Assembly (NCBI GenBank): GCA_963718615.1
Contig: OY970368.1
Location: 3,392,001-3,456,000 of the forward strand
Direction of reading: 5' to 3'
Origin: an uncultured cyanobacterium
Lineage (GTDB): Bacteria > Cyanobacteriota > Cyanobacteriia > PCC-9006 > JAAUQQ01
Length of the DNA: 64,000 bases
Numbering within the stretch: the first letter of the stretch is position 1; the number at the start of each line of letters is the position of its first letter. Below, piece by piece: positions 1 through 20,347 of the stretch. A program made the position numbers and the translations under genes. A model generated the notes under the pieces. The model was given only the letters and a program-made list of their open reading frames with translations, was not told the DNA's origin and made no database searches.

Positions 1-872
1 TCGATCTGATGAAAAACATGCAGGTTCCACTTCAAGCACTTGAAGAGGAATGGCTGTATGATCCCGAAATGATCTATGAGAATCTCGAAAAGAATGTCAA
101 GAGTGACGCTATCTTCTTGGTTGATCCTAACAATCCATCTGGATTTACGCTATATCAGCAAGGAATAGTCGGTTGGCAAGAGCTAATCCGGTTTGCGAAA
201 GAAAACAAAAAGTTGCTGATTTTTGACTTTTGCTTTGCAGCTTTCATGCTGAATAACAAAAATCTACAGCTCTTCGACATTTATGAAATGTTGGAGACTT
301 CTGGTGTAAGCTATATTGCGATGGAGGATACGGGTAAGACTTGGCCGCTACAAGATGCTAAGGTTGCTATGCTTAAAAGCAGTGCTGATCTTTACGCGGA
401 TATCTACAATCTTTATACTGCTTATCTTCTGAACGTATCACCTTTTATACTGAATATCGTAACTCAGTATATTCTTGATTCTGAAAAAGATAAATTTGCA
501 TCAGTGCACGGTTTGCTGAGCCGCAATCGTGCGATCGCTGAAGGAATTCTCAAAGATTCTATTTTAGAACCAATGACTCCTTTGGTGAATGTTAGTGTGA
601 TGTGGTGTCGAATCAACAGTGAACAGATTCAATCTAGTCAGCTCAAGACTTACTTGACAGAATTTGACATTCACATTTTACCTGGAACTTTCTTTTTCTG
701 GAATTCACCCCAGCGCGGCGAACGCTTTATTCGCTTGGCTTTAGCGCGTAATACTGAAACTTTCGAACCTGCCGTACGAGCCCTTCGAGATGCTGTTGAC
801 CAATACGAAGTTTTCCTCTCCGCTCAGAAAACTCAGCGGGATTTATGCTCCCCTAGTAACGCCCTTTTATAA
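1..872 (+). CDS. PLP-dependent fold-type I enzyme, RohP/Ind4/MppP-like O2-dependent L-arginine oxidase (5' end outside window)
   Basis: Frame is open to the window edge. Motifs LVDPNNPSGF, IFDFCFAAF, AMEDTGKTWPLQDAK (PLP lysine), LLNVSPFIL and HILPGTFFFW..RLALARN match my recollection of the RohP/Ind4 arginine oxidases rather than ordinary aminotransferases. Confidence 0.8.
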   Translation, partial: DLMKNMQVPLQALEEEWLYDPEMIYENLEKNVKSDAIFLVDPNNPSGFTLYQQGIVGWQELIRFAKENKKLLIFDFCFAAFMLNNKNLQLFDIYEMLETSGVSYIAMEDTGKTWPLQDAKVAMLKSSADLYADIYNLYTAYLLNVSPFILNIVTQYILDSEKDKFASVHGLLSRNRAIAEGILKDSILEPMTPLVNVSVMWCRINSEQIQSSQLKTYLTEFDIHILPGTFFFWNSPQRGERFIRLALARNTETFEPAVRALRDAVDQYEVFLSAQKTQRDLCSPSNALL

Positions 873-1644
873 GGGACAGTTTGATCAAGACTCACTCTAT
901 CGCCTGATGGATACGATTGAGCCCTTTGCAGAGGGATTTGTACCCTGTTTGAGTTCTGGCGAAGGTCAGTTTCTTTCCCTCTCAACTTGGCAGAATGTTA
1001 TCCAGGCAACGCGTCAATATACTCAGAAGGTAGTTATTGCGGGGATCAAACGTGAAACTCTACAAGAGACAATAGCGTTAGGTAAACTGGCACAACAGTT
1101 GGGTTGTGATGCCATTATTGTGCCGGTACCTGTCTCAGATGATAGGGTTACCGTTGGTTACTTCAATCAAATTACCGCTGCGATCGCCCTACCCATTGTT
1201 ATCTATAATACGGAAAGCCATTCTATTCAATCACTAGATGGTTTAAGGCAACTGGAGAGCTTACCTCAAATCATTGCTATTAAGGATTCTTCCATGAATG
1301 AAGAATTTTTTAAGCTCCTTTGTAATTTGAGAACTCAAGCGCAGCTCCGTCTTTCGGTTCTACAGGGATTTGAACATCTTTTGCAAGTCCCCCCTGGTTG
1401 TGATGGCTATCTCATTGCCTTGGCAAATCTTGAACCAGAGCTTTGCCATCGAATGTTGCTTGAAAATTCTGATGTGATCAATAGTGAAATTCTAGATTGC
1501 TTTTGGCGTTATAACCTGGGTGCTGATTGGTTTGTGAGTATGAAGGCAATTTTGATGGCTCGCCAAGTCATTCGCTCTGCGGAACAAGTTAATCTAATGG
1601 TTCAACCCGATCTTAAATCGGTTCCTAATTTGGCGATCGCATAG
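790..1644 (+). CDS. DapA/N-acetylneuraminate-lyase family class I aldolase (RohR-like candidate)
   Basis: GIYAPLVTPF N-terminus, LSSGEG in place of GTTGE, IVIYN, and Schiff-base lysine in AIKDSS. Overlaps the upstream ORF by 83 nt. Confidence 0.8.
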   Translation: MLLTNTKFSSPLRKLSGIYAPLVTPFYKGQFDQDSLYRLMDTIEPFAEGFVPCLSSGEGQFLSLSTWQNVIQATRQYTQKVVIAGIKRETLQETIALGKLAQQLGCDAIIVPVPVSDDRVTVGYFNQITAAIALPIVIYNTESHSIQSLDGLRQLESLPQIIAIKDSSMNEEFFKLLCNLRTQAQLRLSVLQGFEHLLQVPPGCDGYLIALANLEPELCHRMLLENSDVINSEILDCFWRYNLGADWFVSMKAILMARQVIRSAEQVNLMVQPDLKSVPNLAIA

Positions 1645-1716
1645 CCATCATCAAGCTTAACTAAGCATGCTTCCATCATTCCAATGATCGAGTGGATAAA
1701 AACAAGTTAACTGATT

Positions 1717-1750
1717 GCCTGCGATTTTTTTTATGAGTTGCAGGCTTTTT
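1717..1750 (+). terminator. Putative intrinsic terminator after the aldolase gene
   Basis: GCCTGCGA...TTGCAGGC stem followed by TTTTT. Confidence 0.5.
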
Positions 1751-1956
1751 CGATATTTAATTTGATCAATAACCCAATGCTGTGTAATTTACTTAAGCTT
1801 GAATGTTTTCAAATAAATTTGAAATTTTAGGCTACTTAGTCTGATATTGCTTTTGTTTTATTCATAAAAAGTTCGGATTGTATCTATGAACTAGGAAGAT
1901 GGAAATAGAGATGGCTATCACGGTTATTTCTTGCTTATCTTCATTGCTTTATTTCT

Positions 1957-2457
1957 ATGTTGGGCTGGATCTTCTTGGCTTTTGCAGTTTGTTTGGATGT
2001 TCTGGGCACATTTGCTGCAAAATATGCGAATGGGTTTACAACACTGATTCCATCACTCATTACTATTGGGGCCTATTGTTTATCATTTACAGCGTTGACC
2101 TTTTCGATCAAAACACTCGATGTCAGCGTGGCTTATCCGGTTTGGACTGGCTCTGCAATCTTTTTAGTGGCTGTTTTAGGGGCTGTATTCTTCCACGAAA
2201 CGGTCAATTTCTTTAAAGTCTTTTCAACACTTTTGGTCGTCTTTGGCATCGTTGGCTTAGTGGTTAGTAGCCAGCCCGATGCAGCGGCTTGTCCGCCGGA
2301 GGTAGAACAAACTCAGCACCTACTCCAGAGCAGTAATCGCCCAAGGCTGTCCATGTCTCCTGTCTTTCATCGATTAGGCACACCTGTACTCTATGCAACT
2401 GTTAAGGGATACTCTGCCAACGTCATTCGTTTAAAGCCAGAGTTTTCTGAAAACTAA
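1957..2457 (+). CDS. SMR (EmrE/Qac/Gdx-like) small multidrug resistance transporter with C-terminal extension
   Basis: Four hydrophobic segments; motifs W..L..A...DV.GT...K...GF, VAYPVWTG, FFHE and GIVGL. About 60 extra C-terminal residues. Confidence 0.85.
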   Translation: MLGWIFLAFAVCLDVLGTFAAKYANGFTTLIPSLITIGAYCLSFTALTFSIKTLDVSVAYPVWTGSAIFLVAVLGAVFFHETVNFFKVFSTLLVVFGIVGLVVSSQPDAAACPPEVEQTQHLLQSSNRPRLSMSPVFHRLGTPVLYATVKGYSANVIRLKPEFSEN

Positions 2458-2495
2458 GGATGGCAACGCAATCTCGTGCTTAGGTTGCCATCCTT
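2456..2495. terminator. Hairpin between the convergent SMR gene and pepA
   Basis: Perfect 12-bp inverted repeat AAGGATGGCAAC / GTTGCCATCCTT with a 16-nt loop. Confidence 0.6.
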
Positions 2496-2516
2496 GAGAG
2501 ACTCAACAGGAAATTT

Positions 2517-2551
2517 TAAGACAAGAATTCTAAGACAAGAATTCTAAGACA
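2517..2551. repeat. 14-bp tandem repeat (TAAGACAAGAATTC, 2.5 copies)
   Basis: Read directly from the sequence. Confidence 0.9.
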
Positions 2552-4231: not shown

Positions 4232-5776
4232 ATGGCTGGGAAATGGAGCCTCATATCAATGGAGATTGTTGCTGGGTTCGGGTTGCGCTCAGAGACTGCG
4301 TTAGGTGTTTTCTCAGACCCCCAGGGGATTGAATCCTGGGAGGGGATTGGGGTCGGGCTCGGAATGCTGGCTGGGACTGGGGCTGGGATTGGAATTGGAA
4401 TTGGAATTGGAGCAGAGACGCCACGAGAGGAGTTGGAGCGGTTGAGCGGGGCGATCGCCCAAGACTCGATCACCCTGGATCCCACCCAGGAATCGCTCAC
4501 GTTTTGGCCTAGTCACGACACCAATAATACGCTCACCACAGCCCAATCCTTAGGAATCTTAGAAGACTCGATTGTTCTCCAAGGCAGCCTGGGAGAAGCC
4601 GAATTTTTAGGACTGGATACCCAGGATTATTTCCAATTTCAAATTGAAGAGCCATCGCGCATTAACTTGACCTTGGACTATCTGAGTGCCGATGCCGATT
4701 TAGAGATTTTGGATGCTCAAGGCAATGTATTGCTTCAATCTAACCGTTGGGGAACCGCGACAGAGGCCATTACCTATCGGGTTGAGCAGACTGGGTTCTA
4801 CTATGCGCGAGTGATTTGGGAAGCACCTCAAACCTTTCCACTGACGTTGCCCGCAACGGATTACGAATTGCGTTTGGTGTCGCTGGAGAGCGATTTGCAG
4901 GTGGGCGATCGCACCTATCCCGATGGCGTTAGTTTCTGGCGTTACGATGCCCAAGGCCAAATTGAACAGGGGGTGGGTAATGAGGCGATCGCTACCAACC
5001 AAAATACAATCCTGGTTATCCATGGCAATAATCCCGATGGCCGGAGCCTCCGCGAAGACACCCAAATTGAGTCCCTCGCCAAGCAGGCAGCGACGGCCTA
5101 TCCTGCCTATCAAGTGCTAGCGCTAGACTGGAAAAAACCTGCGGCCAACGGCAAGGACTTGGTCCCGCTGGAATCGGCTCAGGCCATTCAGCCTGTGGCA
5201 CTGTGGGCCAAGGCTACGTTAGAATCTTTAGGATTAAGTGCCGATCAAATCAGTATATTTGGCCATAGTTTAGGCTCCTATGTGGGGGCCGAAATTGGCC
5301 GCTTGTTGAACCAAGTAAATGCATTAGTGGCCTTGGATCCAGCCTTTCCCGCCCAAAACTATGACATCAATGGCAATGAGCCAGGACAGCAAAAGATTAC
5401 GAATTTCAACTTGGCAGCTACGCGATCGATCGCCTTTGTGGCCTCCGATGAACGGGGTGGAATTGCTGGGGACAATAACCAAGCGGCAACGGCCCAGGCT
5501 TCGTTTATTGTGCAGTTTGAAGATCCCCGCTGGTTTGCCTTTACGGCTTTGGAGTATCACGGGGGCGTAGTTGAAGTATTTTCCAGCTTGCTACAACAGG
5601 ATCAGTTGATGTTTTCTGGCTATAGCAACAATTGGTTTGGTAATCGGGGCGGGCGCTATCGCAATCCCCGTGCAACGGCCCATGAAGGGGTTATTGTGGC
5701 CCATGAAGTCGATGGTGTTTGGCAGGCGGATCAATGGGGATTTGTGCCGGGGGATGGGGCGATCGCCTGGGTCTAG
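4232..5776 (+). CDS. PPC (pre-peptidase C-terminal) domain + alpha/beta-hydrolase lipase-like protein; start uncertain
   Basis: PPC-like DYFQF..LSADADLEILD..GFYYARV segment; VIHG oxyanion motif, ALDW, GHSLG nucleophile elbow, ALDPA. Confidence 0.75.
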   Translation: MAGKWSLISMEIVAGFGLRSETALGVFSDPQGIESWEGIGVGLGMLAGTGAGIGIGIGIGAETPREELERLSGAIAQDSITLDPTQESLTFWPSHDTNNTLTTAQSLGILEDSIVLQGSLGEAEFLGLDTQDYFQFQIEEPSRINLTLDYLSADADLEILDAQGNVLLQSNRWGTATEAITYRVEQTGFYYARVIWEAPQTFPLTLPATDYELRLVSLESDLQVGDRTYPDGVSFWRYDAQGQIEQGVGNEAIATNQNTILVIHGNNPDGRSLREDTQIESLAKQAATAYPAYQVLALDWKKPAANGKDLVPLESAQAIQPVALWAKATLESLGLSADQISIFGHSLGSYVGAEIGRLLNQVNALVALDPAFPAQNYDINGNEPGQQKITNFNLAATRSIAFVASDERGGIAGDNNQAATAQASFIVQFEDPRWFAFTALEYHGGVVEVFSSLLQQDQLMFSGYSNNWFGNRGGRYRNPRATAHEGVIVAHEVDGVWQADQWGFVPGDGAIAWV

Positions 5777-17648: not shown

Positions 17649-17833
17649 GCCTCTGATCCTATGATTGCCGAAGGCGCGATCGCGCTATCCTGTGTTTCCT
17701 GCTGTGTTCCCTAAAAATCGGTGGTTTAGTCTTCCTGTTACTGGCTGTATAGGTCTGAAGATCTCTCTACCTACTCAGCCAGTTCCGGGCAGTATTCAGG
17801 CAGATCGATACCGAAGACCGCGAAAGCAAAATT

Positions 17834-20347
17834 GTGAACCCAAGTTCTAGTCGTTCAATCCCGTCCACTCCAGCATCCCGTTATGAAGAATTTGAAAATC
17901 ACGTCAACCTAGGCCAACACTATAGTCAAAAGTCTCTATTCTCAAAAGCCTGTTGCCACTATCAGCAGGCATTGCAGCTGCAACCCCATGCACCTGAAAT
18001 TCACTACAACCTCGCAGTGGTATTTCATCATTGGGGCGAGTGGGATCTAGCAGAAACTCACTATCAAACTGCACTTCAGCAACAGCCCCATTATCCCCAT
18101 GCCTACTTTAACTTGGGGGTTTTGAAAGCTGACCAGCAGCGCCCTAGCGAGGCCATCGCCTACTATCAACAGGCCATCGCCCAACAGCCCAATTATTTGA
18201 ATGCCTATTTAAACTTAGGAGCCCTTTGGGTTCAGCAGGAAGCCTACGGGCAGGCGACGATACTTTATCGAGAGGCGATCGCCCGTTTTCCCCAACAGGC
18301 TTCCCTGCACAATAACCTGGGCCAACTCTATCAAAAACAGGGGGAATTTGCGATCGCCCTAACCCAGTACGAAACAGCCCTAGGGCTCGCTCCAGGCTTG
18401 GCTAAAGTGTACGAAAACCTGGGGTGTTTATGGCTTCAACATCAGGATTATGCGAAAGCCATTCATTATCTTAAGCAAGCGATCGCCTTTTCTCCCAATC
18501 CCAACCACGCCCTCAGCGACTGTGCCGCCGTTGCCCTAGAACAGGGGGATCTAGAGACGGCCCTAGCTGCCATTAAACAGTCGATAGATTTGCATCCTGA
18601 ACCCCTCGCTCGTTACTGCCAGATAACCTTAGAACAGAAAAAGTCTGATAATTTGCTAACTCAGACCCAGCGTGCTTGCTCATTGTTCATTCAGTCTCTT
18701 CAGCAGGGCGACTCCTTGCCGTCTGCCAGTCACAGGTTGTTTCAAGTTTATTGTGGATTGGGGGCGATCGCCTTTGAATCCAAAGCCTATGCTAGGGCCG
18801 CACAATGTTATCAAATGGCTGTGCAAATCGAGCCCCAGGCCCAAGCCCTCTATCGCAAAATTTCCGACTGTTTAGCTCAGCAAGGGCGTTGGGTCGCAGC
18901 CCAAACGGTTGTGCAACTTGCTAATACCTTGACGACTTCTGGGATACAAAAGCATCAAGCAAGCCTACAGCCTGAAACCCCAAGGATAGATTCTCCTCAC
19001 CCTAAACCCTCTGTTTATCCGGCGTTAACCACAGCCGAGTGGGTTGCTCAATCATTGCCTCACAAACCGGAACGTTTCTCCCAAGCGCCTGTCTATGAAT
19101 CGCTGAATTTTCAGGTTGAGCAGTGGTTAAGTCGATCGCAAAATTCCTTGATTCGCGTCCTCAATGCTAGCCCTCTTCCAGTCTGGGAAACTCCCTCGGC
19201 TGATTCCTCGACTGGCCAAACTGAACCCGGAAATGCCTGCGGTGGCGTGACTTGCCATCGCTGTATGGAACAACTGGTGCAAAGCTTTCGACCGCAACAG
19301 CTTGCTGCTGGTGTGTTTCAATGTAATCTCCAAGCTGCTCCTATCTTGCCCAATCCTGCTTTGTTCTGGGCAACTATTCCCTTGGGACGGGCCTGGGTTG
19401 CTCCCTATGAAAGTGATTGGGTCGCCTGTCACGAAGTAGCTGTGATGACACCAGACCAGTCATTGCTGAGTGATTTGTCGCGCTCCTATCCCTGGAAACT
19501 GCCGCCCTGTCCTCAGCGACCTCAATCGCAGTCTGGCAGAATCTCAGAGCGCACAACCTTGCCTCCTATTCAATATTTAAAGGGTTCTGTTGTACTGCTT
19601 TCAACCCTTTCGAGTCATATCTATTACCATTGGATGATTGACCTTTTGCCCCGTCTTCACCTCTTAAAGCTCGCCGGTGTAGACTTCAATCAAATTGATC
19701 GATTTGTGGTGAATAGCTTGCGCCATTCGTTTCAGCGAGAAACGCTGCAAAAACTTGGGATTCCCCTTGAAAAGGTGATTGAGAGCGATCGCACCCCCCA
19801 CATTCAAGCCGAACAGCTCATCGTTCCCTCGTTTCCAGGGCATTTAGACTGGATTCCTCCCCATACCATCGAGTTTTTACGACGGATTTTTGGAGCAGAG
19901 CATTCCCGAGCTCAACCGAAATCCCACCTCAAAATTTATATCAGTCGAGCGAAGGCTCGTTATCGCCGGGTCTTGAATGAAGCAGAAATTATCGCCGTTT
20001 TGAAACCTTTAGGATTTAAAGTCGTCACCTTAGAAAGCTTAACCGTTCAGGAACAGGCTGAGCTTTTTGCCCAAGCAGAGGTAATCATTTCTCCCCATGG
20101 TTCTGGATTAACCAATTTAGTTTTTTGTCAGTCCGGCGCTCAAATCATTGAACTTTTTTCACCTCACTACCTCAGGACTGATTACTGGATGGTTAGCCAA
20201 ACGTTAAAGTTGCAGCATTTCTACATTGTTGGGAAGTCTTTGGCCTGTACGGCCCTACGACGATTGATGTATCCTAGTTCGCTCATGGAAGATCTCTGGA
20301 TTGATCTAGGTGCATTGCGTTCGGCTTTGCGGCTCATTCAAACTTAG
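17834..20347 (+). CDS. TPR repeats + glycosyltransferase family 61 (DUF563) domain
   Basis: Multiple TPRs; YYHWMIDLLPRL, IYISRAKARYRRVLNE, QAELFAQAEVIISPHGSGLTNLVF. Confidence 0.9.
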   Translation: MNPSSSRSIPSTPASRYEEFENHVNLGQHYSQKSLFSKACCHYQQALQLQPHAPEIHYNLAVVFHHWGEWDLAETHYQTALQQQPHYPHAYFNLGVLKADQQRPSEAIAYYQQAIAQQPNYLNAYLNLGALWVQQEAYGQATILYREAIARFPQQASLHNNLGQLYQKQGEFAIALTQYETALGLAPGLAKVYENLGCLWLQHQDYAKAIHYLKQAIAFSPNPNHALSDCAAVALEQGDLETALAAIKQSIDLHPEPLARYCQITLEQKKSDNLLTQTQRACSLFIQSLQQGDSLPSASHRLFQVYCGLGAIAFESKAYARAAQCYQMAVQIEPQAQALYRKISDCLAQQGRWVAAQTVVQLANTLTTSGIQKHQASLQPETPRIDSPHPKPSVYPALTTAEWVAQSLPHKPERFSQAPVYESLNFQVEQWLSRSQNSLIRVLNASPLPVWETPSADSSTGQTEPGNACGGVTCHRCMEQLVQSFRPQQLAAGVFQCNLQAAPILPNPALFWATIPLGRAWVAPYESDWVACHEVAVMTPDQSLLSDLSRSYPWKLPPCPQRPQSQSGRISERTTLPPIQYLKGSVVLLSTLSSHIYYHWMIDLLPRLHLLKLAGVDFNQIDRFVVNSLRHSFQRETLQKLGIPLEKVIESDRTPHIQAEQLIVPSFPGHLDWIPPHTIEFLRRIFGAEHSRAQPKSHLKIYISRAKARYRRVLNEAEIIAVLKPLGFKVVTLESLTVQEQAELFAQAEVIISPHGSGLTNLVFCQSGAQIIELFSPHYLRTDYWMVSQTLKLQHFYIVGKSLACTALRRLMYPSSLMEDLWIDLGALRSALRLIQT

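Follow-up and report, generated by a model that had tools for sequence, protein, structure and literature searches.

To our knowledge, arginine oxidases that depend on pyridoxal 5'-phosphate (PLP) and O2 have been described from a few antibiotic pathways, found in actinomycetes and in Pseudomonas. RohP, MppP, and MilM convert arginine and O2 into 2-ketoarginine and (S)-4-hydroxy-2-ketoarginine, as reported in PMC12464687, and in the azomycin pathway RohP serves as the oxidase, RohR as the retro-aldolase, RohQ as the cyclodehydratase, and RohS as the N-oxygenase, according to the account in PMC10724926. Here, we describe a stretch of 64,000 nucleotides from the genome of an uncultured cyanobacterium (contig OY970368.1; G000:C1:3392001-3456000), referred to below as the window, which opens with a RohP-like gene, an overlapping RohR-like aldolase gene, and a gene of the small multidrug resistance (SMR) family. 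The locus is a minimal two-enzyme variant of the azomycin-type pathway and not an azomycin cluster.

Like the rohPQRST clusters of Streptomyces and Pseudomonas, the window encodes a predicted PLP/O2 arginine oxidase followed by an aldolase of the dihydrodipicolinate synthase (DHDPS) family. It differs from these clusters in its cyanobacterial host and in having no RohQ, RohS, or PRMT-like RohT alongside the pair; moreover, its closest RohQ-bearing relatives are ordered P-R-Q, not P-Q-R-S (P to S denoting genes of the RohP to RohS types), and its route would be expected to end in 2-aminoimidazole or the aldehyde before it instead of a nitroimidazole. With MilM/MilN of the mildiomycin system and MppP/MppR/MppQ of the enduracididine system, the locus shares a homologous PLP oxidase, one that would take arginine to 4-hydroxy-2-ketoarginine, but the low-GC island on which the pair resides contains neither an MppR- or MppQ-like gene nor nucleoside genes. 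A literature search, which was incomplete and is not proof of absence, found no report of a cyanobacterial RohP/RohR pair or of P-R-Q loci that lack the oxygenase.

The predicted oxidase–aldolase pair

1..872, + strand: 3' two thirds (289 of 407 codons) of a putative RohP-like PLP/O2-dependent L-arginine oxidase/hydroxylase gene, assigned by homology
790..1644, + strand: gene for a putative RohR-like class I (Schiff-base) pyruvate aldolase of the DHDPS/N-acetylneuraminate lyase family, assigned by PF00701, tree, and predicted fold

The left end of the window holds three open reading frames (ORFs) on the forward strand, at 3..872 (with an open 5' end), 790..1644 (284 aa), and 1957..2457 (166 aa), which match PF00155, PF00701 (DHDPS, 74.6 bits), and PF00893 (SMR, 77.2 bits), respectively. 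The GC content is 0.36–0.46 across positions 1–2500 and 0.50–0.57 further right. The ORF, Pfam, and GC data thus confirm the layout proposed in a sequence-only reading of the window, in which a PLP enzyme overlaps an aldolase and an SMR gene follows, all in AT-rich DNA; both motifs quoted in that reading lie in the first ORF.

The complete PLP gene begins 352 nt before the window and occupies 17649–18872 in the numbering of L002, the 18 kb left of the window, where it encodes 407 aa from an ATG codon. A TTG start 23 codons upstream of this ATG is less likely, as relatives align from about residue 14–25 of the longer form. In phmmer searches of the PDB, the PLP enzyme matches RohP best (6c3a; E 9.4e-126, 423 bits, 379 columns without gaps), with about 49% identity by hand count on the alignment, followed by MppP (5dj1; E 4.3e-47) and 7n79 (E 6.3e-42, 147 bits); 6C3A and 6C3C are named as RohP complexes in a passage of a preprint. 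Among the NCBIfam models, MppP (TIGR04462) ranks first at 164.2 bits, under its cut-off of 450, which denotes no MppP equivalog and is consistent with the enzyme being RohP-like instead; GntC ranks second at 63.7 bits, and all ordinary aminotransferase models score 40 bits or less. The strong full-length match to RohP, the weaker match to MppP, and the low aminotransferase scores uphold the earlier assignment of this ORF to the RohP/MppP type, and the alignments predict a member of this family that is far nearer to RohP than to any ordinary aminotransferase. The enzyme is also closer to RohP than to 7n79, although this is only suggestive of a hydroxylated rather than a desaturated product.

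Thirteen of the 14 active-site residues published for MilM, comprising catalytic, PLP-binding, and substrate residues, are kept in the PLP enzyme when MilM is mapped by a constant offset of −2 and not by direct alignment. The kept residues (T12, E15, H29, Y87, S90, F114, N116, N162, D193, K230, K238, T257, and R362) are invariant among eleven aligned homologues.

The aldolase ORF overlaps the PLP ORF by 83 nt in another frame. Since the aldolase N-terminus is conserved in relatives, with tblastn matches that begin at residue 1–2 in five loci (L004–L008), the overlap is genuine and not an artefact of start-codon choice. The sequence-only reading had named a true dihydrodipicolinate synthase (DapA) as the identity that would speak against its proposal; this identity is ruled out, as the dapA model (TIGR00674) gives 75.8 bits against a cut-off of 206.15, a genuine dapA of 359.5 bits resides elsewhere in the genome (C1:445206-446057), and the two proteins are far apart in the aldolase tree. 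Tyr139 and Lys165 are invariant in 15 aldolases from RohP-like loci, which share 28 invariant columns in total, and Lys165 is the predicted Schiff-base lysine in an alignment with DapA proteins. The AlphaFold model of the aldolase (pLDDT 88.9) finds its best Foldseek matches among N-acetylneuraminate lyases, with TM scores of 0.76–0.82 and 20–22% identity; N-acetylneuraminate lyases are retro-aldolases that release pyruvate. At E 1e-30, just 29 homologues are found among 1.84 billion representatives, indicating a small aldolase family, while an Atlas look-up returned DHDPS clusters only. The likeness to RohR was judged by linkage, tree, and family, the comparison set being the aldolases of P-Q-R-S loci and not the characterised RohR, and by these measures the protein is placed with the aldolases encoded beside RohP-like genes.

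Gene layouts and the missing azomycin genes

Scans of genome contigs and of metagenome contigs, the latter mostly short, yielded 33 distinct loci with a RohP-like gene. The RohP-like gene is followed by an aldolase gene in 21 of them, and in 11 others the contig ends too early; L031 is the sole locus without an aldolase gene, within 8 kb. Three layouts can be distinguished. Layout A consists of P, DUF6190, the aldolase, and a PF14518 oxygenase, often with a PRMT-like methyltransferase (L014, L026, L030, L033, and fragments), and agrees with rohPQRST as described in PMC12713392 and PMC10724926. Layout B, found in Proteobacteria (L008–L011, L013, and L021), consists of P, the aldolase, and DUF6190, with no oxygenase. 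Layout C, which is cyanobacterial, comprises P and the aldolase only. The window proteins are 45–68% (PLP enzyme) and 43–52% (aldolase) identical to those of layout B, and 46–51% and 31–33% identical, respectively, to those of layout A. The proteobacterial loci of layout B thus contain the closest non-cyanobacterial homologues and, like the window pair, have no RohS-like gene, but they keep DUF6190 and have no SMR gene. A scan of 150 relatives of the genome G041 for further proteobacterial loci returned only five genomes that were already known.

The phylogenies agree with this division. In the PLP tree, the cyanobacterial proteins form one clade (SH-aLRT 100) beside layout B, and in the aldolase tree, from which row L030 is excluded, the aldolases of layouts B and C form one clade (85/99) apart from layout A and far from the DapA of the same genome. 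The two trees are congruent, with the cyanobacterial and P-R-Q types together and the P-Q-R-S type separate. Linkage is also reflected in fused proteins: P0036 joins a RohP-like enzyme to an aldolase (647 aa, 45% identical to the PLP enzyme of the window), P0018 an aldolase to DUF6190 (445 aa), and P0040 DUF6190 to an aldolase (417 aa). The fused proteins could be gene-calling errors, yet three different fusions lead to the same conclusion.

Several of these loci show features of their own. The aldolase match is split between two frames in L010 (9423–10233) and L024 (1612–2381), which suggests a frameshift or a sequencing error. Two related cyanobacterial loci, L006 (10593–13682) and L007 (10584–13704), carry directly after the aldolase a set of DUF2282, MbnB-TglH-ChrH-like, DUF2063, and Rce1-like genes that looks like a peptide-modification cassette.

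The sequence-only reading had expected the rest of an azomycin-like cluster to lie left of the window. This expectation is not borne out: the 18 kb of L002 contain signalling genes and no gene for RohQ, RohS, a halogenase, or a nonribosomal peptide synthetase, and no RohS N-oxygenase is encoded in window positions 1–2457 either. RohQ (DUF6190, PF19689) was not found in the genome (G000, 100% complete), whether the query was the family model or the L008 protein; the same family search matched G193 (177.8 bits) and G041 as controls, and gave no match in the cyanobacterial genomes G194 and G195. With no N-oxygenase in the cluster and no RohQ found in the genome, the description of the cluster as azomycin-like is not sustained. 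Only one RohS-like match turned up in the genome, a PF14518 protein of the heme-oxygenase-like di-iron type with 393 aa (G000:C1:3848345-3849526; L050 5345–6526), which is encoded 457 kb from the pair and is 33% identical to a RohS-like protein over 174 aa. Its gene adjoins an agmatine-deiminase-like gene and a Mn-catalase gene.

The low-GC island and the SMR gene

1717..1745, + strand: terminator-like hairpin and T run between the aldolase and SMR genes (three in the region against 2.3 in shuffled sequences, only suggestive)
1819..1848, + strand: promoter-like site upstream of the SMR gene (matches the consensus at 9 of 12 positions; such sites no more frequent than in shuffled sequences)
1957..2457, + strand: SMR-family transporter gene (PF00893), with a conserved C-terminal tail of about 60 aa and Asp at the position of the membrane-embedded Glu
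2456..2495, no strand: perfect inverted repeat of 12 nt, immediately past the SMR stop codon, where the low-GC island ends on the right

The stretch that carries the pair is foreign-looking DNA. Low GC content extends from about position 5500 of L002 to about position 2500 of the window, roughly 15 kb, of which about 12.5 kb lie left of the window, and the GC content at third codon positions (GC3) is 0.29–0.44 in the island genes (0.44 in the SMR gene) and 0.55–0.59 in the flanks. In the GC-rich left flank, genes for GuaB3, thioredoxin, and a LOG-like protein precede the island. The island then carries, left of the PLP gene, genes for a GGDEF-EAL protein, slr1659- and slr1658-family regulators, a receiver-PP2C phosphatase, a receiver, a hybrid kinase, and two NMT1/SsuA-type binding proteins (SBP1 and SBP2), the last three of which are divergent from the PLP gene. 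At the right edge, the spacer between the SMR gene and an aminopeptidase gene contains a 14-nt unit repeated twice in tandem (window 2512–2539). Farther right, at window 4232–5776, a 514-aa ORF starts with a Gly-Ile dipeptide repeat (GIGIGIGIG), which reads as a Pro-Ile repeat on the opposite strand.

The PLP gene is present in four of the seven other genomes of the same cyanobacterial family and in none of 33 sampled genomes from 26 other cyanobacterial families. The same four family genomes, and none of the other three, carry SBP1, indicating that the island comes and goes as a block; the PLP/aldolase module came with the adjoining signalling genes. In L008 and L010, the P-R-Q stretch is likewise lower in GC content than its flanks, which suggests a mobile module.

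The SMR protein conserves the four-helix core of the family, Y60, W63, and the KY..GFT motif found in Gdx (SugE) and EmrE, but differs from them in its tail, in Asp14 in place of Glu, in a Gly in place of the Gdx-Clo Trp, and in its lack of a guanidine riboswitch. It scores 73.3 bits against the SugE model (cut-off 126), lies under every NCBIfam cut-off, and matches 8vxu (66.4 bits), 6wk5 (64.7 bits), and EmrE (60.7 bits) in the PDB about equally. We take 6wk5 to be the guanidinium exporter Gdx-Clo, although the PDB listing does not name it so. The substituting Gly aligns with the Trp of 6wk5 that lies three residues after the Glu, a position important for the Gdx subtype, and no Rfam match at E up to 1 to a guanidine or any other riboswitch was found ahead of the SMR gene (L001). 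The SMR protein therefore shows none of the three marks of that subtype, namely the SugE score, the riboswitch, and the Trp. Instead, it belongs to a tailed subgroup of eight proteins, including the window protein itself (the others being P0003–P0009), in a collection of 5.8 billion clusters. The tail (window 2275–2457) closes on a conserved ...NVIxLKPEFS stretch. At position 14, the proteins of the window and L004 have Asp and the other six have Glu.

The sequence-only reading had described the SMR protein as the cluster's own exporter, a claim for which the evidence is divided. The SMR gene shares the GC3 of the island, and an SMR gene is found near the pair in two of the four related cyanobacterial loci, directly beside it in L004 and 4 kb away in L006. 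On the other side stand the terminator- and promoter-like sites between the SMR and aldolase genes, the missing riboswitch, and this patchy linkage, as no SMR gene is near the pair in L005, L007, or any proteobacterial locus. In all three loci that have it, the SMR gene adjoins a leucyl-aminopeptidase-like gene (pepA, by size and position), so it could simply be a neighbour. The spacer between the aldolase and SMR genes is not conserved between the window and L004. The SMR gene looks like a separate transcription unit, and it is doubtful, though by no means far-fetched, that its product is a dedicated exporter for the pair.

The proposed route, its rivals, and its meaning

The reading that we favour, with moderate confidence and on the basis of homology and gene linkage, is that the pair is a two-enzyme module from an azomycin-type pathway that would convert arginine into pyruvate and guanidinoacetaldehyde, and the latter into 2-aminoimidazole. 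The PLP enzyme would use O2 to convert L-arginine into 2-ketoarginine and (S)-4-hydroxy-2-ketoarginine, freeing H2O2 and ammonia, as expected from its homology to RohP. The overlapping aldolase, probably translationally coupled, would form a Schiff base through Lys165 and, judging from its homology and gene linkage, cleave 4-hydroxy-2-ketoarginine in a retro-aldol reaction to pyruvate and guanidinoacetaldehyde. Without RohQ, guanidinoacetaldehyde would cyclise and dehydrate to 2-aminoimidazole in a slower, non-enzymatic reaction, and without RohS no nitro group would be added. The title of a JACS paper from 2025 reportedly calls the RohQ reaction "a spontaneous cyclodehydration", so that 2-aminoimidazole could form in the absence of RohQ. 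In the least supported step, the tailed SMR protein may export the cationic product.

Several observations weigh against this route. The residue corresponding to MilM Ser260 is Ala258 in the PLP enzyme and its clade, and the aldolase is just 31–33% identical to the aldolases of canonical P-Q-R-S loci. According to PMC12464687, the product ratio of RohP is 2:1 for 2-ketoarginine over the hydroxylated product, and little substrate may therefore reach the aldolase. Outside the cyanobacteria, every locus with enough sequence either keeps DUF6190 or has space for it, and its loss here might mean another fate for the aldehyde. The export step is further weakened by the replacement of the key Glu with Asp in the SMR protein, the missing riboswitch, the sites that separate its gene from the aldolase gene, its absence near the pair in other loci, and its constant association with pepA.

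A rival reading is catabolic, with the pair serving as an arginine-degrading or nitrogen-scavenging route to pyruvate and ammonia, and the SMR protein removing the guanidino waste. The chemistry does give pyruvate and NH3, no tailoring genes are nearby, and cyanobacteria handle guanidine as both a nutrient and a toxin, as stated in PMC12704784. However, the characterised relatives are slow (the kcat of MilM is 5.6 per min in PMC12464687), produce H2O2, and have been found in secondary metabolism only; moreover, the island contains no aldehyde dehydrogenase or guanidino-hydrolase gene, and the genes are patchy in occurrence (four of seven family genomes, none of 33 from other cyanobacterial families). 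We consider a catabolic route unlikely. It would be even more surprising if the aldolase joined rather than cleaved, or used another partner, to build a larger guanidino compound, as proposed for MilN and MilM; in that system MilM, with 60% identity to RohP, has the DHDPS-like MilN as its partner, and the published description gives MilN a possible role in C–C coupling. The island has no gene that would supply a second substrate or tailor the product, and the closest aldolases occur in P-R-Q loci beside the cyclodehydratase family, some of them fused to it, an arrangement that fits cleavage followed by ring closure; a joining role is therefore very improbable.

The signalling genes of the island allow a further explanation, in which the module releases its product, either 2-aminoimidazole or the aldehyde before it, and the two orphan NMT1-type binding proteins and the divergent hybrid kinase detect this signal and feed a PP2C/partner-switch/cyclic di-GMP (c-di-GMP) output. 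The enzyme pair and the sensor genes share one low-GC island, and within the family the binding protein accompanies the PLP gene in four genomes while three have neither, but genomes from a single family do not count as independent cases, signalling genes often end up as neighbours by chance, and SBP1-like proteins (39–41% identity) occur in three cyanobacterial genomes without the PLP gene. In an unrelated proteobacterial lineage (L008 and L012), an NMT1-type binding protein and a chemoreceptor are encoded directly upstream of P-R-Q, and L040 has a divergent PAS kinase with a receiver; the L008 binding protein and SBP1 are, however, not reciprocal best matches, and the L008 protein was rejected as an SBP1 orthologue on this ground. 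The cyanobacterial binding protein GimA binds guanidine at 97 nM as given in PMC12704784, so recognition of the guanidinium group is possible for a binding protein in cyanobacteria. In the genome, no guanidine-binding protein of the GimA type (TIGR03427) scores above the cut-off, SBP1 being the second-best match below it, and PDB searches with SBP1, SBP2, and the L008 binding protein returned only weak matches to sulfonate, taurine, and nitrate binders, with no clue to the ligand. Taken together, we regard such a signal module as an outside chance.

In L008 (2976–7253) and L012 (324–4533), the genes before P-R-Q comprise a PRMT-like methyltransferase on the minus strand, a four-helix-bundle chemoreceptor, and the NMT1-type binding protein. 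In Pseudomonas, luxRI adjoins the roh clusters described in PMC12713392.

The full form of this idea, which is speculative and improbable, is that the island is a make-and-sense system in which the enzymes make 2-aminoimidazole, the SMR protein releases it, the two transporter-less binding proteins and their hybrid kinase detect it, and c-di-GMP would be reset through the adjoining PP2C, partner-switch, and GGDEF-EAL genes. 2-Aminoimidazole is familiar from synthetic chemistry as an anti-biofilm scaffold. If true, this would amount to an arginine-derived autoinducer in cyanobacteria.

Returning to the two-enzyme module, the observation stands and the enzyme assignments have good support, pointing to a stripped-down variant of a known pathway. 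The first two steps of azomycin formation appear here alone, in a cyanobacterium, and on an island that is found in only part of one family. The SMR protein defines a tailed subgroup of its family, and the pair provides a concrete candidate ligand for the neighbouring orphan sensor of binding proteins and kinase. Should the chemistry be as predicted, the route would end with 2-aminoimidazole or guanidinoacetaldehyde instead of passing through it, a property that a small, unstudied group of proteobacterial P-R(-Q) loci would share.

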